From positions 1,693-65,692 of the IMG/VR virus record IMGVR_UViG_2814123190_000001: 64,000 bases of DNA; one strand, 5' to 3'. This DNA comes from a virus. Taxonomy: Duplodnaviria; Caudoviricetes. The translations under genes were made by a program, and so were the position numbers. Below are positions 9,930-62,430 of the stretch, in pieces (position 1 is the first letter of the stretch; every line of letters begins with the position of its first letter). The notes beneath the pieces are model-generated. The model saw nothing but the letters and a program-made list of their open reading frames with translations. It searched no databases and was not told the origin of the DNA.

Positions 9930-12125
9930 ATGAATATTGAGAATATGCAGTATCACCCTCTTTCTGAGCAGTTAGTAAAAGTTCTATTAGATAAGACTCA
10001 AGCTACAGACCCTCATTATTTTAGGGTACTTGTGGCTTATTACTTTAGCTTAGCTGCTTCTCATATGCGAGCTAAGGTAGTTACTCAAGATAGAGGTGAT
10101 ATCCCTATCAACCTATATGCCTTAAATCTAGCTCCTTCTGGTTTCGGTAAAACCATGAGCACTAACTTTATGGAATCTGAGGTTTTAGGGAATTTCCGAT
10201 ATAAATTCTTAGAAGATACCTTCCCTTCAATGGCTGAGATTAATTTACCTAAATTAGCTAATCGTAGAGCCATCAGAAACCAGACAGACCCAGAGCAAGA
10301 ACTAGCAAGCGTAGAGCGTGAATTTGTACGTCAAGGACCTATGCTATTTAGTTTTGACAGTGGTACAAGTCCAGCAGTTAAGCAACTACGACATAAACTA
10401 CTAATGGCTAATGTAGGTAGTCTAAATCTGATTATGGACGAAGTAGGATTAAACCTTTCAGATAATAAAGAAGTCTTTAAAGATTTTATTGAGCTTTATG
10501 ATGTTGGTTTAATTAAGCAGAAATTAGTTAAATACACCAATGACAATCAACGCTCTGAAGAAATCATTGATAAGACTCCTTCTAACTTACTGATGTTTGG
10601 CGTGCCTAGTAAGCTCCTAGACAATGGTAAGACAGAATCTGACCTTATGTCCTTATTAGATACTGGATATGCTAGAAGATGCTTCTTTGCTCATGTAGAG
10701 AGAGTAGATAGAAAATCTACTTTATCTGCTGAGGAAATCTTTGAGATGCGTTCACAAATCCAAAGTAGTCAATTTATTGAGAATCTATCTGAGCAGTTAG
10801 AAATCCTAGCAGATGCCTCACAGGTAGATAAATCAATTGAAGTACCTAGAGAAGTATCTATCAAACTCATCGAGTACAGAAATTACTGTGAACGTAGAGC
10901 TAAAGAAATACCTAATCCAGAAAACTCTAAGCAGTTATTAATTGCAGAGCTAGAACATAGAGACTTTAAAGTCTTAAAACTAGCAGGTGCTTATGCCTTT
11001 ATGGATAACTCTATGTGGGTTACTGAAGAGCATTTAGATAATGCAATTAAGCTGGCTGAGGATAGTGGCGAAGCATTTCGTTCAATTGTAGAGCGAGATA
11101 GACCTTGGGTTCGCTTAGCTAAATATATTGCAGAAGTGGGTGATGAAGTAACTCAAGCAGATTTATCCCAAGATTTACCAATCTACTCAGGTCCTAAATC
11201 AGCTAAAGATGAGCTACTAACTAATGCTATTGCTTGGGGATACAAGAATAACGTCATTATTAAAAAGCGTTATGAAGATGGAATTGAATTTCTAAGAGGT
11301 GAAAGCTTAGATGAAACCAGTACAGATAAGATGATTATTACTTACAGCAATCAAATTACTGAAGGGTATCAGAATGAGTATGCTCCTTTTGAGAAACTCC
11401 ATCAATTAACTCAACAACCTAATATGCATTGGGTTAATCATCACCTAGATAACGGATACCGCAAAGAAGAACATATTGACGCCTCTGTAGGCACAAATAT
11501 GCTTGTCCTAGATGTTGATAACGGTACCCGATTAGAAGTCGTCAGAGAGCTTCTCAGGGACTATAAATACCATATCTATACTACCAAAAGACATACTTCC
11601 TCAGAGCATAGATTCAGAATCATTTTACCTCTAAGCCATGTACTGAAATTAGATATCAGAGATTACAAAGAATTCATGAATAACGTATTTGAATTCCTAC
11701 CCTTTGATGTTGATACTCAGACAGGACAAAGAGCTAGAAAATGGCTAACTCACAAAGGTCATTATGAATATAACGATGGTGAGTTATTTGATGCTATGCC
11801 TTTTATTCCTAGAACCGCTAAGAATGATTCACGCCTAAACCAAATGAAAAACCAGTCAGATTTAGACAGGTTAGAAAGATGGATTATGAATAATTCAGGA
11901 GATGGTAATAGAAATAATATGCTCTTGAGATATGGACTAATTCTTGTAGATTCTGGCTTTAAGCTAGATGAAGTAAGAACCAAATTGCTTAACTTAAACG
12001 ATAAATTATCCGACAAGTTAAGTGAAACTGAGATTCTTTCTACCATTTTAGTAACAGTGTCTAAAAAGCTGATTACTTCTAATGCTAGTAATGATGAACA
12101 TTCTAATCAAGTAATTAACAGTTAA
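9930..12125 (+). CDS. DNA primase, N4 gp43-like (P-loop domain plus primase domain)
   Basis: Walker A APSGFGKT, LIMDE; C-terminal LVLDVD, TTKRH..HRFRII, GNRNN.L. Confidence 0.88.
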   Translation: MNIENMQYHPLSEQLVKVLLDKTQATDPHYFRVLVAYYFSLAASHMRAKVVTQDRGDIPINLYALNLAPSGFGKTMSTNFMESEVLGNFRYKFLEDTFPSMAEINLPKLANRRAIRNQTDPEQELASVEREFVRQGPMLFSFDSGTSPAVKQLRHKLLMANVGSLNLIMDEVGLNLSDNKEVFKDFIELYDVGLIKQKLVKYTNDNQRSEEIIDKTPSNLLMFGVPSKLLDNGKTESDLMSLLDTGYARRCFFAHVERVDRKSTLSAEEIFEMRSQIQSSQFIENLSEQLEILADASQVDKSIEVPREVSIKLIEYRNYCERRAKEIPNPENSKQLLIAELEHRDFKVLKLAGAYAFMDNSMWVTEEHLDNAIKLAEDSGEAFRSIVERDRPWVRLAKYIAEVGDEVTQADLSQDLPIYSGPKSAKDELLTNAIAWGYKNNVIIKKRYEDGIEFLRGESLDETSTDKMIITYSNQITEGYQNEYAPFEKLHQLTQQPNMHWVNHHLDNGYRKEEHIDASVGTNMLVLDVDNGTRLEVVRELLRDYKYHIYTTKRHTSSEHRFRIILPLSHVLKLDIRDYKEFMNNVFEFLPFDVDTQTGQRARKWLTHKGHYEYNDGELFDAMPFIPRTAKNDSRLNQMKNQSDLDRLERWIMNNSGDGNRNNMLLRYGLILVDSGFKLDEVRTKLLNLNDKLSDKLSETEILSTILVTVSKKLITSNASNDEHSNQVINS

Positions 12126-12144
12126 CTATAAGGAATAAAACCAA

Positions 12145-12255
12145 ATGAGTAACAATAAAAATATTGTTCTGATTATGGGTAAACCTAATACTGGTAAGAG
12201 TACTTCTTTGATGAAGCTAGCTAACCAAGATAGGTATGTTTATCTCAATACAGAT
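12145..12255 (+). CDS. Exon 1 of N4 gp44/Sak4-like AAA ATPase (not in ORF track)
   Basis: AAGGA RBS, ATG 12145; MSNNKNIVLIMGKPNTGKSTSLMKLANQDRYVYLNTD contains Walker A; in-frame TAA follows at intron start. Confidence 0.88.
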
Positions 12256-13136
12256 TAATTTCTAGTCTGGCTTAGTAGAAATACTATGAATAATTAACCT
12301 ATCTAATTCAGGGAAACTCCTAACGTAAAGCCGAGGACAACCCTGAGCGAAGCTAATAGAAAAATAAATAGAAGGTAATGAACGTGGAAAAGGTAATTAA
12401 CGTCAACGGCAAAACATATGTTATATGTAGCAGCGGTAAGGTTTTTCGAGAAACTCTAAGAAAAATTCCCATTGTTACTAAAGGTATGCGCTTCTCTGGA
12501 AAATTTCTAGAAATCCAAGAACCCCGTAAACCATTAAAGCGTATCCTAAATAACCGAGGATATCTATCGGTAAAATTGGATAAAAAGACGAAAATGGTAC
12601 ATCGTTTAATTGCTGAAGCTTTTATCCCCAACCCAGAAAATAAACCATATGTGAACCATCTTAATGGCAATCGTTTAGATAACCGTGTAGAGAACCTTGA
12701 GTGGTGTACTCAACAAGAAAACGTTCATCATGCATTTAATACTGGTTTAATTTCCGAAAAGGGAAGAAAAAACTCCATACAGGCATTATTAGATAATAAT
12801 CCAAATCCGAGATTGTCCGATAGTGCTATTGAAGATATTCGTACTAATTTTAAAAAGAGGTGCCCAGTAAACGGGGCAAATGCCTTTGCAAAAAAGTATG
12901 GGGTATCCACTACCACTATTTCTTATGTTATTAATCGAAGAAAACATTATGTTTTCTATTAGAACGTGCAACGACTATCCCCAATGGGGAGTACATACGA
13001 AGCTAATGCGTATGGAAACGGTAGGCGTCTTAACAGATAGTGCTGAAGATGAAGATATAGTCTGTTCTCATAAGAAATTATGAGCAATTCTAGATGAATT
13101 GACTTAATGAGTTGCGTCATTAAGTAAACACAAAAG
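12256..13136 (+). mobile_element. Group I self-splicing intron (IA2-like), 881 nt, carrying HNH homing endonuclease
   Basis: P1 CAGAU/GUCUG with U12255.G12265 wobble; P AAUUCAGGGAA and Q AACCCUGAGC; P3 CCUAUC/GGUAGG; P6a 12353-63/12952-62; R GUGCAACGACUA; S AAGAUAUAGUC; P7.1, P7.2, P8, P9, P9.1, P9.2 hairpins; omega-G13136; splicing restores frame. Confidence 0.92.
12378..12962 (+). CDS. Intron-encoded HNH homing endonuclease (I-HmuI-like)
   Basis: Y..CSSGKV NUMOD4-like start; VHRLIAEAFIPNPENKPYVNHLNGNRLDNRVENLEWCT..EN..H; C-terminal HTH-like AKKYGVS.TTIS.V. Confidence 0.92.
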   Translation: MNVEKVINVNGKTYVICSSGKVFRETLRKIPIVTKGMRFSGKFLEIQEPRKPLKRILNNRGYLSVKLDKKTKMVHRLIAEAFIPNPENKPYVNHLNGNRLDNRVENLEWCTQQENVHHAFNTGLISEKGRKNSIQALLDNNPNPRLSDSAIEDIRTNFKKRCPVNGANAFAKKYGVSTTTISYVINRRKHYVFY

Positions 13137-13751
13137 ATGAAAGAACTGCCCTTCAAAGATAAATTCTTAAAGAATGTACAGGTAGCTGATGCTCTTGATG
13201 TACTTGGGTTCATTTCAGAGATTGAAAAGAATCCTGATGTTGATGGGGTTGTTATAGATACCCTAACTTTCTTAATGAGTATGTATGAAAGGCAGTATGT
13301 AGCTACTGCTACAAACACCCAAAAGGCATGGGGAGATTACGGGAACTTCTACCGTGAATTAATCCACGCAATTAAAGCAGGTACTAAAGACTACATTATC
13401 TTTGCTCATGAGGATTCAGAACTAAATACTCAAACCATGCAGATGGAAACTAGAGTACCCGTAAAAGGCTCTGTAGGAAGAACTGGAGTAGAGGCAGACT
13501 TTACTACTATTCTCTCTGCTAAGCAGGTTCCTATCTCTATTCTTCAAGATGAGAAATATCATAATGATTTATTAAATATTACTCCTGAAGAAGAGGAAGA
13601 TGGTCAGAAGCACGTATTCGTAACCCGAGTAACTAAAGAGTATGTCGGTGAGAAAATGAGAAGTGCTATGGGCTTATGGAACCGTAATGAGTTATATATC
13701 GATAATGATATTAATCAAGTACTTATCCGATTAAAAGAGTACTATAATTAA
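13137..13751 (+). CDS. Exon 2 of N4 gp44/Sak4-like AAA ATPase (spliced product 241 aa)
   Basis: Walker B VVIDTLTFLM, AWGDY, FAH, VPVKGS...GVEADF; lacks Walker A unless joined to exon 1; lies between primase and SSB as N4 gp44. Confidence 0.9.
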   Translation: MKELPFKDKFLKNVQVADALDVLGFISEIEKNPDVDGVVIDTLTFLMSMYERQYVATATNTQKAWGDYGNFYRELIHAIKAGTKDYIIFAHEDSELNTQTMQMETRVPVKGSVGRTGVEADFTTILSAKQVPISILQDEKYHNDLLNITPEEEEDGQKHVFVTRVTKEYVGEKMRSAMGLWNRNELYIDNDINQVLIRLKEYYN

Positions 13752-13795
13752 TTCTTTAAATTTAAAGAAATTAGTTATCTACCCTTGTCTTTACT

Positions 13796-13842
13796 AAATA
13801 AAACCAATAGTTATATCTCCTATTTCTATTGGTTTTATTTTC
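13796..13842 (+). terminator. Inverted repeat/terminator after ATPase gene
   Basis: AAATAAAACCAATAG / CTATTGGTTTTATTT 15-bp perfect IR. Confidence 0.55.
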
Positions 13843-13885
13843 CCTAAATTAATTAATTAATAAAAACTATATATAGGAAATTATT

Positions 13886-14623
13886 ATGACTTTTTTTGGT
13901 AACCTAGAAACCTCTTCAGATATCCAACAAGAACAGGATTTCGTATCTCGTGGTGGTTTATTAGATTCTGATATTTATACCCTCACTATTAAATTAGCTT
14001 ATGGTGTTATCGCTGGTAGTGGCGCTAAAGGTTTAGCTATCGTAGGGGAGACTGAAGATGGTCGAGAAGTCCGTCAAACTTTCTACTTAACCTCAGGTAC
14101 TGCTAAGGGTTGTTTAAACTTCTGGACTGACCAGAATGGTAAAAAACACTACTTACCTGGCTTTAACATGGCAGATTCATTAGCCCTTCTAACCGTTGGT
14201 AAGTCGATTACAGAGCTTCCTACAGAGACTAAGAAGATTAGCCTATGGAACTCAGAAGTTCGTGCAGAAGTGCCTACAGACGTTCCTATGTTCATGGATT
14301 TAATTGGCCAGAAAATCAAAGCAGGAATCCAGAAACAGTTGGTTAATAAAACTGCTCAAGGTTCTTCAGGTAAATGGGTTAACACCTCTGAAACCAGAGA
14401 AGTTAATGAAATCGATAAATTCTTCCGAGAACGTGATTCTAAAACCACAACAGAAATCCGTGCAGAAGCTCCTGAAGCCAATTACATTGAAATTTGGAAA
14501 ACTCAAAACCAAGGTCAATTAATTGATAAGGTTAAGAAAGCTGACCCTTCAACGTCAAGAGCAGCTAATAGCAGTGCCTCTAATGGTGGTACTGCAATGC
14601 CTACAAAGAGCTTATTTGCTTAA
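13886..14623 (+). CDS. Single-stranded DNA-binding protein, N4 gp45-like
   Basis: LDSDIY..TI..AY, F.LTSG, YLPGF..A, RE.NEIDKFF, flexible tail ending SLFA; synteny. Confidence 0.8.
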   Translation: MTFFGNLETSSDIQQEQDFVSRGGLLDSDIYTLTIKLAYGVIAGSGAKGLAIVGETEDGREVRQTFYLTSGTAKGCLNFWTDQNGKKHYLPGFNMADSLALLTVGKSITELPTETKKISLWNSEVRAEVPTDVPMFMDLIGQKIKAGIQKQLVNKTAQGSSGKWVNTSETREVNEIDKFFRERDSKTTTEIRAEAPEANYIEIWKTQNQGQLIDKVKKADPSTSRAANSSASNGGTAMPTKSLFA

Positions 14624-16667: not shown

Positions 16668-19600
16668 TTAATATAAATTACTTATCCCATACTCAATCGT
16701 ACCAATAGTACCCACATTTTTAGGAATATTAAATATACTCCACTCTAGTGGATTTCTAGTTAGACGATTGGTAGTAAGCCAAGAGGAATCCATAACAGTA
16801 TCTAAGCCACTAATACCAACTGTGGCATTAGTAAGGATTGTAGATACTACATGTACTGGCTTATTAACTAATAATGAAGCCAATACTCTTTGGATTCCTA
16901 AGGCATACTTCATAAATAATACTAATCCTAAACCGTCCATATATTGAAGATGTCTAGGCATCGCAATATCGTACATAATGAACGAATCTTTAGCAGCATC
17001 TAATGCCTCTTTTTCACTTAGTGGATTATGCTTCTTATTGGTTAAATGGTCATATAACGCATGTCTTGCTACAAAATCACTGTATTGAGTTGCTGTATTC
17101 AGTACTTTAAATAGCGTAGTATCCTGAGCCATGTACACGAATTTAGCCACTTCTCTAACTGATTTTGGAAGCTTAGAAGTTTTCTCATCTAACTTATTAA
17201 AGAATTGATTTCTTAAAGAATATGGGTCATCTTCCAAAGCTACGTCCTCAACAATCGTAGGCATTAATCCGTTATGAATTAGTGTCTGAATAGGGTTATT
17301 ATTTAATACCTGTCTAAGTGTCTCTAAATCACTCTCCATACGCTTACGTTGAGCAGCAGGAATATCTGGATTAATAGATAATCGAGTGTGTAAATCATAA
17401 GCTTGATCAGTTCTAAGCTTGTAGTCCTTAAGAAGCTTATAACCCTCAATCTGTTTAGTGATTGCCTTGATTGGGTGCATACCATTCATCATAAGAAGTG
17501 TGGTGTTGGACCAAATATTTCCTAATAAAACAACTCCTGATTTAACAACAATCCATTGTTTCATTTCTTGAATCATAGTCCTAAATACATCTTCCCCTCT
17601 TCGGATATGATGTATAGCACGCTTAGCAAAGGCTTCAGCGTCTTTCGGGTCTACCCCTAACCACTTAGTACCAACAGTCTTATAAATGTGTTCTACTGCA
17701 GCTACAAATAGCTCTGTGAATTTATTCCTATTGGCCGGGTCAGATTCTAGGAACTCCGCTAAGCTAGGCATACGATAACCAAAGGTAACTGTTAATAGGT
17801 CTTTTCTAACAAAAATTCCATCTTTAACATTATCGTCCTTTAACATAAGCTGAGGATTAGCCTTAGCCATATTGGTTTTCAAATAATTCTGAGTTTCCTC
17901 AGGAATTAAATTCCAATACTCTGCTAATACAGGGTCTTTTGAATCCTTACCAACCCAGACAAATGATTCCTTATAGAGGTCATAATCATCTTTGAAATCA
18001 CTAATTAATACATCAGCCACATTTTGGTTATGGTTTACGGTTTCTACTTTGTCATAAATAGAAGCAGCATATTTACCTAGTAACGTACCAAAGTCATTAT
18101 TTCTAGAGAATAAAGAATCTTTGGTGTGGTTATCCATTTCATATCTGTAGTTAGCAACTAAGCCATTTGATGTTAGTAGTGGAATTGCATAGTCTCTTCT
18201 TAGGTTACCTGGATTCTCAAACTTAAATGGTGTTTTAAATAAGGAATCAATATCCTTTCTTCTCTTAGCATAGGTCTGTTTTACCCCATTAGAGAAGTTA
18301 CTCTCAAATACAGTAGTTCCTCTGTGGTGTTTGTTTGTAATCTGCATGGCTTGAGACACATAGCGATTACTACCACTATTCTTAAGAACATACATATATT
18401 GCTTCTCAGGACCTGAAGTAATTGATGGGTCTGTAGATACTGGATTATTAATCATCACATAACCCATGGCTTTATATTTACTGGCTTCAGATGCAGGAGC
18501 AATCTCAAAATGAGTTCTCTCATCTAATTGGTCTGGTAAATACGCATCAGTCATGTGAGCACCTAAAGTATCTTCAGAGAATAATATCTCTTTAGACTGC
18601 TTCTCAAGGTCTCTCACGAACTGTAATGTCCACTTAATACCATTACCATCAGTACGTGCATTTTCCGTCTGTAAGAGCCTGTGAGCCACTGTAAGCTCTT
18701 CTGGCTTCATATAAGAAATAGCCATTAAGCTAAATAATTTCTTAAGCGTAGGCTCTACTGCTTTGGCTTGCTTTTCTGATACCCGTGCTACTTTAGGATC
18801 AATACCTACTAATCTAGCAATTGCTCCAATATTGTTTAGAGCATGTGCATGTACAGAATTACCTCCATATAAAGAACGATAAGCAAAATCTGAAACCAGT
18901 TTTAGGTAAGCATTAACGTGCCCTTTATTCTGGGCACTACTACGTAATTGAGCAGATAGTCTTTGGATTTCTTTAGATAGCTTGTCTCCATCTTTTAAGA
19001 ATCCTTCGATATCTTCCATACTGTAGTCATCGATAAGGTATTGAGTACCACCTCGTAAGAATACTTGAGAGATGGTATTTCTCTCTGTTTGGGTTAAATG
19101 AATACCTCCATTCTTGAAACCAGAATCTAAGAATTTCTTAGCATTAGCTTCAATAGTCTTTCTATTTCCCTGTAGGAAGTTAGCAGCGACTACCATTGCT
19201 TCCATAGGTTTGTGGTGTCCGTGAATATGAGTAGCTAGGTTTCTAACAAATCCCGGTCTACTATCTTCCTTGCCTCTAGTGAAGTCAATATAGTTATAGA
19301 AGGATTTAAGCATACCTCCATTTTTTACAAAGTCAGGATTTTTCATGCCTGTCTTTATTGAAGTAGCTACTGTATAGATGGTATTAGCAATACCCCCTTT
19401 CTTATTCTTAGTAGCACTAGAGAGTCTTTCTGCTGCGGTTTGAATAGTAGCCTTACCTGCATTTGAGATACCGCTATTAATCCTATCAGTAACGTACCCT
19501 AGGTTAGAGATAATATTTTCACCAGAGAGTTTATTAGCATGCCTCTGTTGGATTGATTCCAAACGATAAGCCAAGATTTCTAACTGTTCTTTAATAGTTT

Positions 19601-22600
19601 GGTTTTGATTAGTTCCTGTAGCTTTATCGTTAATCCAACTAAATAAATCCTCAACGAGCTGTTTAATTCTCTGCGTAATTGTAGGATTATCTTTTTTCTC
19701 TTTTTGTTCTACTGGTATGTTAAGTACATTCCCTACCTCGGTATTGGATAAACCAAGGGCAATGAATCTAGCTAAGAAATCAGTATTATTTTCTTTTCTA
19801 AATAGGTCCTCGTGCTTTTCTTGGGCTAGTTTAATATCTTCCTTAGTAGCAGTTTTCATTGTTAAACCAGTAGGTAAGAAATGCTCTGGTTTAATTGTTT
19901 TTTCTGTATATCGGTATAAATCAACTAATTGTCTATACGTTGCTGTACGGAAGATAGGATTATCTTTACGCTTCTCAAAGAATGTAGCTAAGGTAGTTCC
20001 TGCCATATCAAAAGTAAACTTCTGAGCACGACTACTCTTAAAGGACATCGGAGGAGCACCTAAGAATGGAAGATAATCATCTTCTAATTTTGAGTAACCA
20101 GGCTCTGCTATTGGAGCAGGATTATGAGTGAAATCAAATGAAGTCTGTTCTGTATATGTGGTATTAACAGTAACCTTATCGATTAACTCGTGTACCTCTT
20201 TTAGGTTCTTCTGTGTTTCTATATTGCTATCACTATCTAGACTATTTAGAATATCTTCAACAGTAGCATTGTCATAAATATCTAGGCCATTTGTCTCTTT
20301 ATATACTTGAGGATTTCCATAAGTATCGTATGAGACTTCTAAAGATTTAACAATAATTTCCCTAGTGATAGAACTAAGTGCTTTATAAAGGCTAAGTCCT
20401 TCTTTGTAATTCTTGTTCTTATGAGATTGTTTTACTAATACACGGGTGATAATATCAATAAACCAATCACCAAAAGTTAGCAACTTATCAAAGAACATGT
20501 TATTGCTATGCTTCTTACGGAATTCCTCTGATACTGGGGTAGTAAACAATCTGTACATAGTCTCTTTGTTTGTCATACCCATTGCGATAAATTCATCTGT
20601 ATTTTGAAGTGCGTACGCAATATCAGAATCATCAGTAAATTCTTTCAGCTGTTCCTTAGCATCTTCAAGTAGTTCCTTTAATAAAATAACTTCTTTGCTA
20701 TCTGGGAAGGTACGAATATAATGAAGCGTAAGTGCGTGAAGAATTTCATGGACAGCAGTCTCTAACCTTGTCCCGTGTGCCAAAAAGTCAGGAGACCCTA
20801 AAGATATCACTCCCACTGTATTGGGATTTTTCCCTTTATTTATTTCTCCACGTCTTGCCGAGAACACTCCCCCTAATCCACGCTTATATTCATCTAAGAA
20901 CTTTCTTCCATCTTCGCTATTGAAAGGAGTATCTTCTAATTTAGTATCTTTAGTAATGAAATGTACTTCTATATTTTTAAGGGCATTTCCTATGTTTGGC
21001 GTTTCCCTTAAAAAGGTAATCATTGGGATTAAGTAATTATCCTCTTCTTTAATAATCTCTGGATTATTTAGGATTTCCTGTACTAAGTCATATGCATTAC
21101 TGTCAGGATTATTTCGTAAATATTTCTCTAGAGGTTTATTAATTTCTTCTCTACTATAAGTATAGTATTCATCATCATAGATAGCGTTCTCATCTAATAA
21201 GATACCGAAAGGACTATTTTTAGTTTTTGGTAACTCAGTCTTATATTTCTTAGCTGTTTTAGGAGTAGCTGGTGGCGATGTGGGAGGGGTTTCTTGAGAA
21301 GAGCCCTTTTTTACATCTTCTGATCTCTTAATAAAATCAAAGTCTTCAAGCCCTTCAGGAGAATCTGGATCAAAGCTCTGAACAGGTTCAACAAGAGTTT
21401 CTACATATTTTTGGTATGTGTAGAGAGGTACTCTTGGATTCTTAATCTTTTGATACGCTGCCTTAGTAATAGCTTCTAAAGCCTGAACTACTTCTTTATT
21501 AGGCTGAAGTAATGCAGTACTGAAGACATGGAAAGGACCTTGCTCTTTTAACATCTTTTCTGGGATACCATATTTCTTCTGGATTGCAATGATTTGGTTC
21601 TCAACCCGTTCGATATCCTCTTTGGTAATTTCATACCCACCTTCTTCTGATGAATATTGGTTTACTATACCCCCTTCATAATCTCTAAGGGTAAGGAGTT
21701 TATTCATCTCGGTAATGTAAGCAGTGTCTAGGGCTCTCTTATATGTAGTATATAAGTGATGAACGTAGTCTCTTACCTCTCCGCCATCAACAGTAATTAC
21801 ATTTCGCTGCAGTGGATTAATAGAATATAAATAGTCTAATACCCCTTTAGCGATTTGATCAGTAGATACATGCTTTTCTAATCCAGCAAGGTCAATATTC
21901 ATCACAATAGATTCAAAGGACTTTAATGCCTCTGTTTGTGGTGAGTATGTGCTGATAGCATTCCATGTTTGTTTATTTAACTCATGAGCTGCGTCATCAG
22001 CAAGTAAGAAGCTGGTTAGTAATTCATCATGGTTATTTAAAGCATCAACAACAGTCTGTGCTAGGTGAGAAATAAAGCTATCTAGAGAGTGTACAGTTGC
22101 GGATACAGCAGATAACCCGGGGTCTGTATGAGAAGGTAAATTAGCCCTTGTAGAGTGCGTTAGAGACTTCTGATTCTCTTTCTTACCCTGCATGTTAGCA
22201 GTTGGCTTAGAGCTAATACTAACCTTATTAATTGGGTTAATCGCATCTGAGCGAGTATTATTTAATAACTGAATACCCGTATTAATGAAATCATCTTTAG
22301 ACCAAATACTATTAATAATTGGTACTAAACCATGAATCTTTCCAAGGATTTCATTATATTCATCTCTTGAGAAATCCCTCTCATATGTACCATTTACTTT
22401 CTTGATTCCGTATTCGGCATAGGAATTTTCTAAGAGTGGTCGTACAATCGCATTAAATAAACCATAAACAGCATTGGTAGTATTTACCATCATTTGCTGT
22501 GTTTTTCTCATACTCTCAAAATATTTGTTTGCTACGTCTCCTGCGAATTCTCCGATAGTCATTGAGAAAGCATCTTGCAGGAATAGCTCTACACTTGTAG

Positions 22601-25600
22601 AGATTTCATGATTTAATAGCTCCTCATAAGATTTAATATTTTTTAATTTATTTAAATCATCTTTTAAGGATTCGTTATATCGATACCCTCTATCTAATGA
22701 CTCTCCACGATCACCATCCATGAGCATGGTAACATCTTCGATATCCTGAATCATATCCTTAAAGTAGGCTAATCCTTCAGGCGTAGATAAGAACTCCTCA
22801 TTCTTTTCTATATATTTATAGAAGCTAGCTAGGAAGTCCTCAGATAATACACGTACAGCATTGTGAGTAGCTGAACCGAAAACCATAGCAGAAACAATAT
22901 TCTTAACAAAGTCCCTGCCTGTTTTGGTAATAGCGTGAATATCGTTTCCTTCATGGAAAGGCTCAAATATTCCATAAATCTTAGCAAAGACTCTAGAGAA
23001 TGTATTATCTGAATCTTTTTCAGTTCGGATATTCGGGTAAGAAATATATAACCTCTCTAAGATGTTATACATAAAGTCTTGGTATAAGTCTTTATTCCCT
23101 GCTTTTGTCCGATAGTCGACAACACTACTCATATCTTTAAATTCTCTGTCTGCAGCGGTAAACATACCTCCCCGTCTTAGAGAATCTGTAATGGTTTCCT
23201 TAGGATTACTCCCTGCACGTATACCATTTAGAATGTGATATAAGAATGGACCATTAGTAACCCCGTCAATGGCATTAACCATTTTTGAAGTAAATACATT
23301 TGTTCCTGAATCTTGAGCATGTAAGAACTTAGCTAATTCTGTTAAGGCAAGTAAGGATAAATATTTCTCGCCTCCTTCATCTACAGTAGCTCCAATTGCT
23401 TCATTGATTTTAGTATCTTCTAATGTTTTCTCTTTTAATCCTAGCCGTTGTTGGATTGCATCAATACCTTTTTGAAGCTCTTCATCATTCTGGATTCGAT
23501 CCATTAATAATTTAATAGAAGTAGCTTTATGTTCTGTATCTGCATTTGCCCCGAAACCAACAGCAATTGCATGTAGGAAGGTATTTACTTTCTCGATATC
23601 ATCTAGTTTTACTTCTACTTCCCACTCTTTAGAGTGAGTAAGATAACGGTGCATCTTATTGGCTTGTAGGTTAAACCTACCTTCCATACCAACCCGACCG
23701 TTTTTCCAATAGTCAAAAGAAAAGAAGAATTCAGAATCAAGTCCTTGCTCTTGGCTTAAAACCATATCTAAGAACTCTAAGAAATAATCTAAGTTTCTTT
23801 CAAGGTCTTTATTCTTAGCTTCTGCACTCTCCCTACGGTTAACGTGCATTTTCTTAATTTCATCAGGGTGTACCCAACCACCCATCTTTAAGAAGGCTTC
23901 TTTATCTTTTGGATTTCCATTCTCGTCTAAGCCTCCGAGCATTGGTAGGATAATATCTACCATCTCTTTATTTAGTTTATAGGCTTCTTCTCGCTTACCT
24001 GTAAGAATCTTTTTAAGTTTCTTAGGTACTGACATTCCTGTACCCGATGCTTTTTGCTTAGTAAATTTCTCTGGTGCAAAGGAAGGGAATACATCAGCAG
24101 ATGAACCTGTAAATAGATTAGTAACTACATGTCCACTCTTATTATTAACTTCAATTAACTGCTTAGTAGCAGGGATTAATTCCCCTCTTCTATTCACTGT
24201 AGGGCGGATTATCATACGCCCACCAGTACCTACTTGGTTAGTTGCAGCAATCTTCTCGTTAAGTGTAAGCTTATCATTGCCCTCAATTAGGGCTTTCATT
24301 GTGCTTGAATCAATGTGGGTATGTGAGAACGTACCTAGCTCAATCAAGGTTCTAGTAGCTACCAAGCCCATTGCTGCTTCTAGCTTAGGTAGGATATCTC
24401 TACCTGCTTGTTTAGTACTTCTTAAACCAAGAGATTTAACTGCTAATTCACCAATGGAGTTAGCAACCGTACCCATAAAGACACCTTTACGATAAGCCTG
24501 TCTTTCCTCAACAGATAAGGGACTCTTATCCTTTCTACCGAGCATACGATTGATTGCCTTATCATCGTTATACATCATCTGAGAGGCTCTCTCAGTAACG
24601 TAACGATACGCAGCAGAAGCCATAGCTAAGGATACGTTTTCCTCAATGTAAGGGTTACCCTCAGCATCATATTCAACTAATTGGTCAAACAGGTTCTCAT
24701 TAGCGTATTTAGCATCAGGTCTTAAATAGATTTCATACATAGCCTCATTAAATCTCTGAGCAAAGCTTACAAAGAGGTCCATACCATTCTGATGGTTCTG
24801 TACAAACTTTTCTTGCATGTGTTTAGGCAAGTAAGATTTCCAATCAATTACACCTGATGTTGCTTTAGATAGGAAATTTCTTTCTGAAACCAAAGGCAAT
24901 CTATGTGCATTATCTACTTCCCTATCAGATTGCGTCAGAAACGTTGCGAGGACGTTTTTAATCTTACCGTAGGGCGTATCCTCTTTAGTTGTATTACTTG
25001 CCTTAAAGATGCCTAGGTAAGCTGTAGGAGGTATTTGTTTAGTATCATCACTCTCCTCATTATCAGCCTTAGCTACCATATCCCTAATACTTTCTAATTG
25101 CTTTTTAAAGTCAGGAACATTTGGATCATCTTGTAGTGATGGTTTCTCTTTAGATTTTTTCTCTTTTTCTTTCTTGGGTTCTTGATTCTTTTTACTTAAG
25201 CCAATTTTTGTTTCACGATTAGTAATGGCATTATCTTCAGAATCAATATCCTCCTCAATCCTACCGTTGCTAAAGATAGGAGTTACTGTACCCTCTTCAT
25301 CTGCTTCTCTAAAGTACTTACTTCTAATCTCTCTGTCAGAAGTTTCATTAGTACTTGGAGGAGGAAGGTGAGATTCACCGATTACTTCAGAATCATCAAT
25401 CAAACCCTGCTTATGTAAATCATCGTAAGCGGCTAATTCTTCATCAGATAGTGATGGTGGTATGTCAGGAGGAGATGTATCTTGATTATCTCCTTGTCCA
25501 GTATCTCCTTCTTTAGTAGGGGTTTCCTTAGGAGGTTCCTGTGTAGTTGGTTTAGTAGTCTTAGTGTCCTTACCAGTCTCAGAAGATTTAGGAGCCGTAG

Positions 25601-28600
25601 TAAACTCACTTAAATACTGCTCTACCGATTTACCATGGTTTGCTTTAATCCAAGCACCTAAAGCAGCTCTATTAACTGTATTCTTACCTGTACCTAAAAC
25701 AGCAGGAATACCATAAGCAATTGAAATAGCAGAAATAGTTCTATTTAATTGGTTAAAGTATTTTCCTGAATAATCAACATCTGCTGCTTCTTTATCTGAA
25801 CCAACAGATTCATTGATTGACATAACCCCTGCATTTTTAAGAGTGGTATTAATACGAGAAGATAGTTCCGTACCCCACATTGCAGAGTCATTTGTCATAT
25901 TAAGTAATGTTCTCAATACCAAATCTCTTAGGGATACCTGATTCTCTCCTGATCTATCTTCAGGGTCTGGAATCATTACATTCTCTGCAAAGGCTACTTT
26001 AGGCTTAATATTCTCATAGTTGTATGGAGCTACTTTATTCTTCTTAGCTAGCTTATTGTAAGCATCAACATTAGCTCTTATCTTCTGGTCTGTAGCATCA
26101 TCTAACTGGTTTAAACCAACCTGATAATCAATGGTTTCTACTTCATTGCCTTCAAATACAATAGCCCCACGGTTATTTAATTGCTTAGAAGGGGTGCTTG
26201 TTTTTGGAGGAGTAGTAGTAGTGGTAGAAGAATTACCTTCTTTTGCTGTAGTTGTACTTGTAGAAGTGCTTGTAGTCTGTTTAGGTATAGTTACATCACT
26301 ACCCTGTTCTACGGCATTAATATAAGATTTTACATCTACGTCTTTATTAGCCTCTCTCCAAGCATTTAATTCCTTAGCGCTTGTTGCTGGAGGCCATGGC
26401 ATACCATAAGCTACCGCTACTTGGTTTACTAAGAAATCCATCTGGTTTGCTTTAGCTGCGTTATCAGATTCTCTAAGGCTATTAATCCCTGTAGCCTTCA
26501 TAACCGCCTGTGTGAGCTTTTTACCGTACAGAGGTCTATCGCCATCTCCTTTAATTGCAACGTCTAAAATATGCTCTACAAGGCTTCTATCACCTACTTT
26601 AAGTTCCCTAGCCATAGCAATCTTATTCGCTACATGCTTTTCTTGGGCTCTTGGGAAGGTAGAAGTAGTGCGACTTAGTAATGATTTATACGTAGGAGAA
26701 TCCACATCAGGAGAATCATAAACAGACTCTACTGAATCTTTTCCAATATTTACATATCCTTTTGTTTTCCCTTCTGGGATTTCTTGAGACTTCTGCTTAC
26801 TTGTGGAAGTAGCCGTACTTGTCTTAGGCGATGTAGTTGCCGTATTAGAGGAGGTAGCAGTACTTGAGGTACTTGGTTTTGTTGGTTTTTTAATAGCCCC
26901 TCTTAATTTATCCCGTAATCCCTGTAACCCTCTTTTCTTAAGGGAGGCTTCTTGATTAGATTCTTCTCTGGCTTTATTTAGGATATTTTGCATTCCTTGA
27001 GGAAGGTCTACATATTCTCCTGTTAAATCAGTAGATACATTGTCAAAGATTTCATATGCCTCTAATTGGCTATCTCTAGTACTAAAGTCAAAAGCCTTAG
27101 GTTTTCTAGTAGCTGTACTATCTAAACCAATATCTGGATTCTGTGCAATTTCTAATGCACTGGCTAATGTATTAGCTGTGTTATCTAAATGGTCTGCTAA
27201 ACCAGACATAGTAGAACCTAACTGTCTAGATGCAGCACTGTTAGCCATAGCATCTAAGGCACCCTCATCTCCTTGAGTACGCTTACCCTCTCTGACAACC
27301 CAGTTCATATTCTCATCTTTAGAGATATGCATTGTCTTTTTGTTTTCTTGGGATTGTCTTAGGGCTTCTTGGAAAGCATCAGCTTTAGACCGTTGTTGTA
27401 AAGCAAAAGCCTGCAAACCATTTAAGGCATCAATAGCTTGGTTATAGTTGCCTGTAGCAATACCTTGTTTAATTGCGGTCTCATACTGGTCTACGCCTTT
27501 ACGTCTACCATCACCCTGACCAATAGAAAGAGCTTCTAGAACAGTTCTAGACATATTCTTTTGAGCTGTCTGTTTACTGTTCTCTACAGTAGCTTGATGT
27601 TCTGCTACTGTTTTCTGTCTTTCTTCTAATAGCTGAATCCCTTGCTCAAAGATATCTTTAAGCTCTTGTGGGATATCCTCAGAGGTTTTTAATGCCTCTC
27701 TAACCTTAGTAATATCCTCTTGGGATAATGCTTCTGGATTAGTAATTGCAGTTGTAGCTAGCGTCTTAGCAGCTTTAAACCTAAGTTCTGGTGCTCCATA
27801 AAATTTCATTGTTCCTTCCTCTTCTTGAGTACCTTCAGTTGTTTTAGAAGAGGTGGAGTTTACTTCGGTAGGTTCTGTAGGAGACGTAGCTGGTGTAGTT
27901 AAGGTTTCTACTGCTTGAGATACTGATTGGGATTGCTCTTCTTCAGTAGTAGAATCAATTAAATCAGAAATCTTCTGTAGGGCATCGCCTAAACCAATAA
28001 GCTCATCTTGGACAGAAGATAGCTTGGATTGGAAATCTTCGGGGCTTAATTCTGCATGTGCTTTTTTAACAGCTTCATATGCAGATTCGCTGGCTTTAAT
28101 TTTATTTAGGGTAGCCGTATCATTCTCTGATTCTGCTTTGGTTTTAGCAGCCATCATGCGGTCATAGGAAGCTTCAAAATCTTCCTTAGGCATCTGCATT
28201 AGCTTAGACTGTACTGCCTTACTAGCAGCGGCTACATTGACCTCAGTAAAGATTTTATCGATCTTTTCATCATTAGCTTTTTTCTGCTCTGGGGTAATGC
28301 CTTCTTGTTTATTACTTTCCATCAAAACAGATACAGCTTCTTTAGGGTCGTAATCAGCATGGGTACTATCTGCGATATCATCTACATTACCTGTTCTGAC
28401 CCGCTCTGCTCTTTTAGCAATGGCTTCTTCTTTCTTAGCGATTTCTGCCCGTCTCTGTGCTTCTTTAGTAGCGGCTCTTCGCATAGGTGCACCAATGACT
28501 TCAGCAACTCCTCTGACGCCTCCAGTCATTCCACCGCCACCCATACCTTCGAGCATACCACTAAGGTAGATATCCTCACCTGTAGGGTCTTCTAATTGAG

Positions 28601-62355: not shown

Positions 62356-62430
62356 ACGTCTGTAGTTCAATGGATAGAACAAAAGACTTCTAATCTTTAG
62401 ATGTAGGTTCGATTCCTACCAGACGTGCCA
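62356..62430 (+). tRNA. tRNA-Arg (anticodon UCU)
   Basis: Acceptor ACGTCTG/CAGACGT, D arm GTTC/GAAC, anticodon stem AAAGA/TCTTT with loop CTTCTAA, T arm GTAGG-TTCGATT-CCTAC, encoded CCA. Confidence 0.95.

Follow-up and report, generated by a model that had tools for sequence, protein, structure and literature searches.

A central question raised by this locus is [quoted passage not shown] Within the window (the whole stretch of 64,000 nucleotides that was analysed), we consider that positions 12256-13136 very probably constitute a mobile self-splicing IA2-like group I intron in the gp44/Sak4-like ATPase gene of an N4-like phage, a reading drawn from the sequence itself. The genes concerned and their neighbours are as follows.

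9930-12125, plus strand: DNA primase of the N4 gp43 type, upstream neighbour (phrog_2135, 1013.6 bits).
12145-12255, plus strand: exon 1 of the gp44/Sak4-like AAA_24 ATPase, 37 codons (ORF 12145-12258).
12256-13136, plus strand: putative group I intron, 881 nt (RF00028 half-hits, absence in relatives, DNA homology, covariation).
12378-12962, plus strand: predicted HNH homing endonuclease gene, 194 aa, I-HmuI-like (PF13392, phrog_59, 1U3E).
13136, plus strand: predicted terminal G (omega-G), the last intron base (sequence, gap-free junction with homologues).
13137-13751, plus strand: exon 2 of the ATPase, 204 codons plus stop.
13886-14623, plus strand: single-strand DNA-binding protein (SSB) of the N4 gp45 type, downstream neighbour (phrog_743, E 9.6e-66).

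The split gene is assigned to the AAA_24/Sak4-like ssDNA-annealing ATPases by its family scores, by both Walker motifs and by its place between the primase and SSB genes, a gene order (primase, Sak4-like, SSB) that the window has in common with Meara, phiEaP8 and PhAPEC7. As the preliminary description had proposed for an N4 gp44/Sak4-like ATPase, Walker A (GKPNTGKS, 12178-12201) lies in exon 1 and Walker B (the hhhhD stretch, VVID, 13248-13259) in the ORF that begins at 13137, and AAA_24 and phrog_124 agree with that assignment, the link to N4 gp44 being made via an annotation note of PhAPEC7 and not by direct comparison with N4. Exon 1 alone matches phrog_124, the Sak4-like family, with E 7.6e-6 and is 47-81% identical to the N-termini of 25/25 homologues; its AAA_24 score (E 0.002, 18.4 bits) is under the cut-off, as expected of just 37 aa. 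Exon 2 scores 29.3 bits against AAA_24 (PF13479; Pfam cut-off 27) and E 9.6e-25 against phrog_124, with 60-71% identity to uninterrupted homologues.

Is the intervening DNA an insertion and, if so, where exactly does it begin and end? It is absent in all 25 relatives that we compared (three GenBank phages and 22 IMG/VR loci), in which the exon-1-like and exon-2-like parts abut without insertion. The gap between these parts is 0 nt in 22 of the 25 and 6 nt in the three most distant, where the match starts from residue 2 and there is one extra residue. At the protein level the alignment with homologues runs gap-free over the junction, so that two expectations of the preliminary description held: that intronless gp44 homologues would be colinear across the junction (25/25), and that 37 and 204 codons would join in frame to 241 with the sequence YLNTD|MKELPF. 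Its warning about truncated gene calls was likewise apt, the protein collection entry for this genome being the 204-aa form. Gene callers can be expected to output a 204-aa ATPase without Walker A together with a stray ORF of 37 codons; the joined 241-aa protein would be the correct product.

At the 5' end, the intron opens with an in-frame TAA (12256-12258). At the 3' end, G13136 is the only G that gives an in-frame and gap-free junction with the homologues. Could splicing instead use G13139, which would remove one codon more and leave ...YLNTD|KELPF... (240 aa)? That site is also in frame, a candidate P10 (below) pairs with 13139-42 and not with 13137-38, and there is a one-residue difference at this point in the distant Vibrio-type homologues. 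However, the residue in question is present in all 22 of the closest uninterrupted relatives (Leu in 20, Met in two), and therefore it is at 13136 that the junction leaves no gap; in the PhAPEC7 intron, too, the final base is a G, and the first conserved exon codon follows it immediately. We consider the use of G13139 very improbable and retain G13136. The occurrence of Met at this codon in two uninterrupted relatives also means that ATG 13137 does not have to be read as a newly acquired start.

The insertion follows codon 37, just beyond Walker A and one codon-length beyond the strand that comes after the Walker A helix, within a highly conserved stretch in which many columns are identical in 22/22 relatives. 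Homing sites usually lie in highly conserved stretches. This site was found in no other sequence examined. A megablast search with 11600-14400 gave no match in the phage collection, and a search for alleles broken at the same site in a collection of 5.8 billion proteins found none among the matches listed (120 of 727 proteins, E <= 1e-20); besides the window's own protein, those listed include three short proteins (217, 209 and 209 aa), all of which read through the site. Contig X1, which is DNA, agrees with 12078-12328 at every position and bridges the boundary of exon 1 and intron, which establishes that the interrupted form exists as DNA, and nothing more; it may come from the source sample of this genome. 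Six sequencing runs contain 5-16% of the sampled words of the stretch, none of the listed runs is recorded as RNA, and five short contigs from four of the six contain no exon-exon joint.

The case for a ribozyme lies in the 296 nt of intron core that are left when the ORF 12378-12962 is set aside. Its elements are listed below.

12251-55/12265-69, plus strand: P1, 5/5 pairs, exon CAGAU with guide GUCUG.
12273-77/12282-86, plus strand: P2 hairpin, 5/5 pairs, GAAA loop.
12298-303/13020-25, plus strand: P3, 6/6 pairs, formed across the ORF.
12308-13/12341-46, plus strand: P4, 6/6 pairs.
12318-21/12334-37, plus strand: P5, 4/4 pairs.
12347-48/12966-67, plus strand: P6, 2/2 pairs.
12353-61/12954-62, plus strand: P6a, 9/9 pairs, with the ORF in its loop.
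12973-77/13058-62, plus strand: P7, 5/5 pairs, GACUA/UAGUC.
12978-82/12986-90, plus strand: P7.1, 5/5 pairs.
12994-99/13009-14, plus strand: P7.2, 6/6 pairs.
13026-31/13046-51 plus 13034-36/13043-45, plus strand: P8, 6/6 plus 3/3 pairs.
13052-57, plus strand: J8/7, matching the RF00028 consensus.
13067-73/13078-84, plus strand: P9, 7/7 pairs, GAAA loop.
13085-90/13096-101, plus strand: P9.1, 6/6 pairs.
13102-10/13117-25, plus strand: P9.2, 9/9 pairs.

The core thus has what is expected of group I: P3 to P8 with a P3/P7 pseudoknot, P7 as the guanosine-binding helix and J8/7, together with a P1 closed at the 5' splice site by the U12255-G12265 wobble and a 3' terminal G. J8/7 and P7 are identical to the RF00028 model consensus, AAGAUAUAGUC. 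The full group I core of the preliminary description, from P1 to P9.2 and omega-G13136, stood up when each helix was checked base by base, every one of them pairing; all the structural tests applied likewise support its larger claim of a group I intron that splits the ATPase gene, with an HNH gene in P6a and predicted splice sites after U12255 and G13136. Minimum free energy folding of the ORF-less core recovered P1, P2, P3, P4/P5, P7.1, P7.2, P9, P9.1 and P9.2 and did not recover P7, which forms a pseudoknot with P3. A candidate P10 of 4 bp (4/4 pairs) may form between 12259-62 and 13139-42 of exon 2. This candidate starts two bases into exon 2, and P1 is short (5 bp). By architecture alone, namely P7.1/P7.2 and P9.1/P9.2, the predicted subgroup is IA2-like; Michel and Westhof reportedly defined IA2 by P7.1 and P7.2 hairpins between P7 and P3' and by peripheral P9.1/P9.2.

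The Infernal check that the preliminary description had suggested gave a divided answer. A scan of the whole window with Rfam at the gathering threshold returned only a tRNA and no group I match, whereas the permissive threshold returned two RF00028 half-hits, of 41.7 bits (12777-13084, E 3.1e-7) and 30.0 bits (12246-12489, E 9.8e-4), both E-values being for the whole 64-kb window; neither half reaches the 50 bits of the RF00028 gathering threshold. RF00028 matched nowhere else, neither in the window nor in the whole 65.7-kb record. We attribute the low score to the 585-nt HNH ORF that sits in P6a. As controls, the annotated ORF-bearing gp44 intron of PhAPEC7 gives a like split (49.5 + 30.9 bits), and the ORF-less relatives K470 and HNL01 score 102.9 and 91.6 bits. 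Since group I introns that bear an ORF score under the gathering threshold and surface only as pairs of half-hits, they are undercounted by scans at that threshold.

Covariation was assessed in an alignment of 10 rows and 60 pairs, with a structure derived from the window sequence, which in itself favours that structure over slid versions. In it, 88.8% of cells are paired, versus 32.1-41.3% when partners are slid by 1-3 columns, and 35 pairs change on both sides, versus 5-17 when slid; none of 500 shuffles reached any of the five covariation measures. Pairs changing on both sides among the relatives number 3/5 in P2 and 5/6 in P3 (94% of cells paired), and the P3 pair set of the window differs from those of K470, pVa5, LBC2 and PhAPEC7 and is still 6/6 paired. 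Covariation was also found in P4 (3/6 pairs), P5 (3/4), P7.2 (5/6), P8 (6/9) and P9 (5/7, 100% paired). Might the resemblance nevertheless be due to chance, or to a free-standing HNH gene that was inserted without a ribozyme? N4-like phages commonly carry free-standing HNH genes, as in Vibrio phage 1.097.O with three of them on the flanks of Sak4 and SSB, and RF00028 is below its cut-off. We give this almost no credence, in view of the RF00028 E-value of 3.1e-7 for 64 kb, the match of the ~300 nt of non-coding flanks to introns that score >90 bits, and the outcome of the shuffles (0/500).

The 194-aa ORF encodes a predicted HNH homing endonuclease, as indicated by its Pfam score (PF13392, HNH_3; 45.7 bits, cut-off 24.8) and its His/Asn motif, with phrog_59 at E 7.6e-44. 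Its placement inside P6a, which had been claimed beforehand, agrees with the 9/9 pairs that enclose it, and its stop codon is included in the 3' strand of P6a. Residues 51-162 match PDB 1U3E (E 4.9e-7, the residues of the His/Asn motif being in register), which is I-HmuI, the one-strand-nicking HNH homing endonuclease of the DNA polymerase intron of Bacillus phage SPO1. The two are alike in an HNH_3-type core with aligned motif residues and in being intron-encoded, and differ in that identity between them is low. A C-terminal helix-turn-helix is indicated by a weak LacI-type HTH match (residues 171-189). The relatives of this protein in IMG/VR (21 loci) are all partial matches, the best being 60% identical over residues 51-126, and none of these loci led to a second copy of the intron.

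How would such an element act? The ATPase gene would be transcribed as a single RNA, in which P1, with its U-G wobble, would arise by pairing of the guide GUCUG and the exon end CAGAU. An external guanosine bound in P7 would attack 3' of U12255, G13136 would then enter the same P7 site, and the exons would be ligated (...ACAGAU|AUGAAA...), with translation of the spliced mRNA giving the 241-aa ATPase (...YLNTD|MKELPF...). On unspliced RNA, ribosomes would be halted by the UAA that lies in frame as the first codon of the intron. During mixed infection, alleles without the intron would be the expected substrate of the HNH endonuclease, which would cleave or nick them close to the conserved YLN(T/A)D(L/M)K, and recombinational repair after the cut would copy the intron into the allele, i.e., homing. 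What the sequence shows is the insertion with its limits as set by the homologues, a complete core that covaries, and HNH motifs that are intact; we infer from it that the RNA splices in vivo, where precisely the 3' splice site lies, that P10 forms, and what the endonuclease does and targets.

Alternatively, the insertion might have lost splicing, or never have spliced in this setting, and the gene could be expressed in pieces: a Walker A peptide of 37 aa and, from ATG 13137, a protein of 204 aa, which assemble or else leave the gene without function. A stop directly after exon 1 and an exon 2 that begins exactly at an ATG would suit this, and there is an experimental precedent in the g39 insertion of a G7C-like N4 phage, which is unspliced and yields two polypeptides (bioRxiv 10.1101/542787). 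The second g39 piece, however, had its own Shine-Dalgarno sequence in that account, and exon 2 is predicted to be without a ribosome-binding site of its own: the anti-SD duplex before it is -0.9 kcal/mol, whereas the median of 25 long ORFs on the plus strand is -6.1, and 62% of 418 internal ATGs have an anti-SD duplex as strong as or stronger than that of ATG 13137. The stretch before this ATG is within and just 3' of the P9.2 stem, which the start codon adjoins. Further points against expression in pieces are that all catalytic-core helices are intact and covary with active-type relatives, that Met is found at the same codon in 2/22 uninterrupted alleles and that, as far as can be judged, a free 37-aa P-loop fragment would be unusually small for reassembly. 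Expression in pieces is therefore improbable in our estimation, and we hold to splicing of a group I intron as the explanation of this locus.

What does the intron add to what is known of its kind? In itself, the intron in 12256-13136 opens no new question for the field. It represents a second, independent insertion site in a gene that is known, from database annotation, as an intron host in N4-like phages, and it indicates that the IA2-like phage intron pool of td, tape-measure and recombinase genes also reaches uncultivated low-GC N4-like phages. It is tempting to go further and to regard the AAA_24/Sak4-type ATPase gene as a recurrent, independently invaded niche for IA2-like introns with homing endonuclease genes, a proposal that we rate as quite doubtful. 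Sites in genes of this type are those after codon 37 in the window and at QKA|WGD in PhAPEC7-type coliphages. A third interrupted AAA_24 gene may tentatively be recognized in the crAss-like cr50_1, whose N-terminal piece matches AAA_24 with E 2.6e-20; RF00028 gives just 26.9 bits there, and the downstream 81-aa piece has no similarity to exon 2 of the window. A related intron (RF00028, 89 bits) is found in a UvsX-like recombinase gene of LBC2. If there were such a preference, the intron would reside in a gene whose product does the strand annealing for its own homing, and splicing efficiency and intron mobility would be coupled.

The preliminary description had found it unusual for a group I intron to occur in this gene and, equally, in an N4-like podophage, and neither view is supported. 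For the gene, the GenBank records of two N4-like coliphages annotate the same gene as a two-piece joined CDS.

NC_024790, gp48/gp49: putative intron of Escherichia phage PhAPEC7 (vB_EcoP_PhAPEC7), GenBank annotation.
PQ850623: putative intron of Escherichia phage RudolfBernhard_Bas96, GenBank annotation.

The note on the internal endonuclease of PhAPEC7 reads [quoted passage not shown], and SP5M and PW8 also match the PhAPEC7-type intron core. Our literature search, which covered papers outside their supplementary tables, found none that describes the gp44 intron of PhAPEC7 or Bas96. Both phages resemble the window in host gene (a gp44 homologue), in family (Schitoviridae), in the primase, gp44 and SSB context and in having an internal endonuclease ORF. 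The PhAPEC7 intron is further alike in a UAA right after the splice-site U, in a guide fitted to its own exon, in its terminal G and in its P9.2 loop, GUUGCG, and it is 82.6% identical to the window over 67 nt of the 5' core and 71.8% over 102 nt of the 3' core. It differs in its site, QKA|WGD, which corresponds to residues 101|102 of the window's spliced protein (37|38 for the window's own site), in its guide sequence and in its internal ORF, which is annotated as "restriction endonuclease" and has no Pfam match at E 0.01, whereas that of the window is HNH_3. Its overall core identity with the window is just 58%, no closer than that of introns in unrelated genes.

As for the phage host, PMC5746245, PMC3670811 and bioRxiv 10.1101/542787 describe N4-like phages with group I introns or with HNH insertions that resemble introns. 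The first places a group I intron in td of the N4-like phage pVa5 (PMC5746245). We found this intron in Vibrio phage 1.097.O as well, and its RF00028 scores are 99.2 and 91.7 bits; it is like that of the window in its N4-like host, its HNH endonuclease ORF and a core of 63% identity with compensatory changes, and differs in its host gene and in passing the Rfam cut-off in a single piece. JA1 and VchO139-I have split gp24, DNAP and gp43 genes (PMC3670811). In G7C-like N4 coliphages, the g16 (RNAP2 subunit) intron splices by RT-PCR and the DNA polymerase gene g39 of the same phage set has an insertion that bears a homing endonuclease gene; the authors report no Rfam match for theirs (bioRxiv 10.1101/542787). 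These roughly 800-bp insertions are alike in bearing such a gene and in interrupting essential core genes of N4-like phages; the host genes differ, and the comparison is one of descriptions. The g16 case is proof that splicing of such introns occurs in the N4-like phage family, and g39 supplies the model for expression in pieces. The nearest DNA relatives of both core halves are in the Vibrio phages K470, where the host is the tape-measure gene (76% and 78% identity by blastn), and HNL01 (74% and 84%); these introns have the P7.1/P7.2 architecture of the window and differ in lacking an ORF in P6a, in their host genes and in the type of phage. Set beside all of these introns, what is new in the putative intron of the window is its insertion site, after codon 37, and its divergent HNH gene.

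The window represents the genome of an N4-like phage. Its GC content is uniform (~36%), and a minus-strand ORF of 4,347 aa (16668-29711) is as expected for these phages' giant virion RNA polymerase. The parent record (65,692 nt, of which the window is 1693-65692) bears the source label 'provirus', and the 204-aa ATPase protein is listed under a contig of 2,705,461 nt; a lytic-type, complete-looking N4-like genome within a 2.7-Mb contig would be unusual, and may reflect a mis-join or a labelling artefact. In relatives the gene order is primase, Sak4-like ATPase and SSB, with the Sak4-like gene a single unbroken ORF of ~240 codons. The corresponding features of the window are listed below, together with its matches to RF00028, the Rfam group I intron model.

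Features of the window
9930-12125, primase
12145-12258, 37-codon ORF (exon 1)
~12246-12362 (real alignment), plus strand, RF00028 5' half, P1-P6; 30.0 bits, E 9.8e-4 in the 64-kb window
12378-12962, HNH ORF
~12963-13084 (real alignment), plus strand, RF00028 3' half, P6'-P9; 41.7 bits, E 3.1e-7 in the 64-kb window
13137-13751, 204-codon ORF (exon 2)
13886-14623, SSB
62356-62427, plus strand, single tRNA gene, close to the window's right end; 75.5 bits

Both AAA_24 and the Sak4-like family phrog_124 match the 37-aa piece, in which the Walker A motif lies; the 204-aa piece scores above the AAA_24 cut-off and matches phrog_124 with an E of 9.6e-25. When the two pieces were compared separately with three GenBank phages and 22 IMG/VR loci (n=25), the exon-1-like match abutted the exon-2-like match in every locus, with a gap of 0 nt in 22 and of 6 nt in the three most distant, which match only from residue 2 onwards and carry one additional residue. 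The protein alignment runs through the junction without gaps (...YLN(T/A)D-(L/M)K..PF... in the homologues, ...YLNTD | MKELPF... in the window). Because the homologues are contiguous and the junction is gap-free, the window has 881 extra bases (12256-13136), inserted where amino-acid and nucleotide sequence are both highly conserved; this bears out the preliminary description of a split ATPase gene, whose parts are colinear with intronless homologues. No break at this site was found in the 25 loci compared, or among the 119 other proteins listed of 727 matches. Two 209-aa ATPase relatives, P0114 and P0115 (the latter on eight contigs of up to 50 kb), start at an internal Met just ahead of YLNTD and have no Walker A part; a break or a misplaced start at yet another site, upstream, may explain them.

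The extra bases are a group I intron. A by-coordinate check of every helix found full pairing in P1 (including U12255-G12265), P2, P3, P4, P5, P6, P6a (9 bp, enclosing the ORF), P7 (GACUA/UAGUC), P7.1, P7.2, P8, P9, P9.1 and P9.2, with G13136 as the final base, and the anatomy proposed earlier was correct in every detail testable here. In the covariance-model check proposed with it, no RF00028 match was reported for the window at the gathering threshold, and a permissive threshold gave the two plus-strand matches listed, whose ORF-ward stretches are filler, with no others in the window or the 65.7-kb record.

What, then, accounts for the sub-threshold score? Many phage introns are related to the two non-coding halves at the DNA level. 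Vibrio phages K470 and HNL01 supply natural versions without an ORF, their halves being ~18 nt apart, and reach 102.9 and 91.6 bits, respectively; for the published td intron of pVa5 the score is 99.2 bits. The annotated ORF-bearing intron of PhAPEC7 is split and sub-threshold like that of the window (49.5 and 30.9 bits). Since ORF-less relatives score high and the ORF-bearing one splits alike, the missed cut-off is an effect of the ORF in P6a and does not point to a core defect.

Similar features occur at other loci. In HNL01, three RF00028 matches within 1.6 kb (L032 1839-2120, 2195-2450 and 3192-3455; 91.6, 87.0 and 37.9 bits) fall where the annotation gives hypothetical proteins and nothing else, and appear to be several unannotated tandem group I introns. 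The K470 tape-measure gene is annotated as two pieces, with an HNH gene between them and no intron, and between the pieces lie the match of 102.9 bits and a second of 35 bits (L034 1369-1621 and 2562-2797). A match of 89 bits in Bacillus phage LBC2 (L037 1361-1613), between two CDSs each annotated 'UvsX-like recombinase', suggests that an intron missing from the annotation interrupts a recombinase gene there. Another interrupted AAA_24 gene is possible in crAss-like phage cr50_1, where an N-terminal AAA_24 piece (E 2.6e-20), an HNH gene and a short 'AAA/P-loop' ORF follow one another (L035 182-1933) and RF00028 matches weakly, at 26.9 bits.

Covariation was assessed in an alignment that joined six compact relatives and both halves from PhAPEC7 to the two halves of the window, with the window's helices mapped onto its columns. 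Standard pairs filled 88.8% of 448 cells, against 32.1-41.3% when the 3' partners were slid by 1-3 columns, and 35 of 60 pairs had both-sided changes, against 5-17 when slid, a comparison biased towards the tested structure because it was derived from the window itself. None of 500 shuffles reached any of the five covariation measures. P3, which spans the ORF, is paired at 6/6 positions in the window with a pair set differing from those of K470, pVa5, LBC2 and PhAPEC7. P1 could not be aligned across introns, as expected of a host-specific guide, and HNL01_b, a more divergent intron, aligned poorly; both were retained in the count.

With its core intact and covarying, and with independent translation of exon 2 disfavoured, the intron very probably splices. 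Both outcomes have precedents in G7C-like N4 phages: one preprint reports splicing of the g16 intron, by RT-PCR, and no splicing of the g39 insertion, from which two polypeptides result, the second having a Shine-Dalgarno and an ATG to itself (bioRxiv 10.1101/542787). An unspliced gene in pieces would suit the fact that exon 2 begins precisely with ATG, but we consider it improbable. No Shine-Dalgarno precedes exon 2: the duplex energy there is -0.9 kcal/mol, whereas 25 long plus-strand ORFs have a median of -6.1. Of 418 internal ATGs, 62% equal or exceed the exon-2 start in duplex strength, and that start lies next to the P9.2 stem. Moreover, Met occupies the first exon-2 codon in two of 22 uninterrupted relatives, and the ATG is therefore an ordinary Leu/Met variant.

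The 194-aa product of the HNH ORF matches PF13392 (45.7 bits; cut-off 24.8) and phrog_59 (E 7.6e-44) and aligns with I-HmuI (PDB 1U3E; E 4.9e-7) with the motif residues retained; no close full-length relatives were found in the phage collection or IMG/VR. In the N4-like Vibrio phage 1.097.O (L003 1-5293), the primase, Sak4-like, SSB and resolvase genes have around them three HNH genes that the annotation treats as free-standing, one of which overlaps the Sak4-like gene at its end.

The preliminary description considered both the host gene and the N4-like host unusual, an inference that is not supported. A search with the 3' core found matches in N4-like coliphages within the same ATPase gene: the PhAPEC7 record (NC_024790) gives gp48 as a CDS in two pieces that is 'similar to gp44 from Enterobacteria phage N4' and describes gp49, an endonuclease, as 'encoded in putative intron', and Bas96 has the same annotated layout. 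Published reports for N4-like phages cover a group I intron in pVa5 td (PMC5746245), and group I introns, or genes split by an HNH insertion, in JA1/VchO139-I gp24, DNAP and gp43 (PMC3670811), in ZC03/ZC08 (PMC5418858) and in g16 and g39 of G7C-like phages (bioRxiv 10.1101/542787). No published description of the gp44 intron itself was found in the main texts searched, which came largely from outside the subscription journals. What is new here is the insertion site and the divergent HNH gene; an intron in this gene and phage family had already been annotated or published. The introns of the window and PhAPEC7 share a UAA directly after the splice-site U, a guide that fits its own exon, a terminal G and an identical P9.2 loop. 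However, PhAPEC7 and Bas96 are broken at QKA|WGD, ~64 codons downstream of the window's site, and the PhAPEC7 core is only 58% identical to that of the window, no nearer than introns in td, tape-measure and recombinase genes. The two introns most plausibly entered the gene independently, from one pool.
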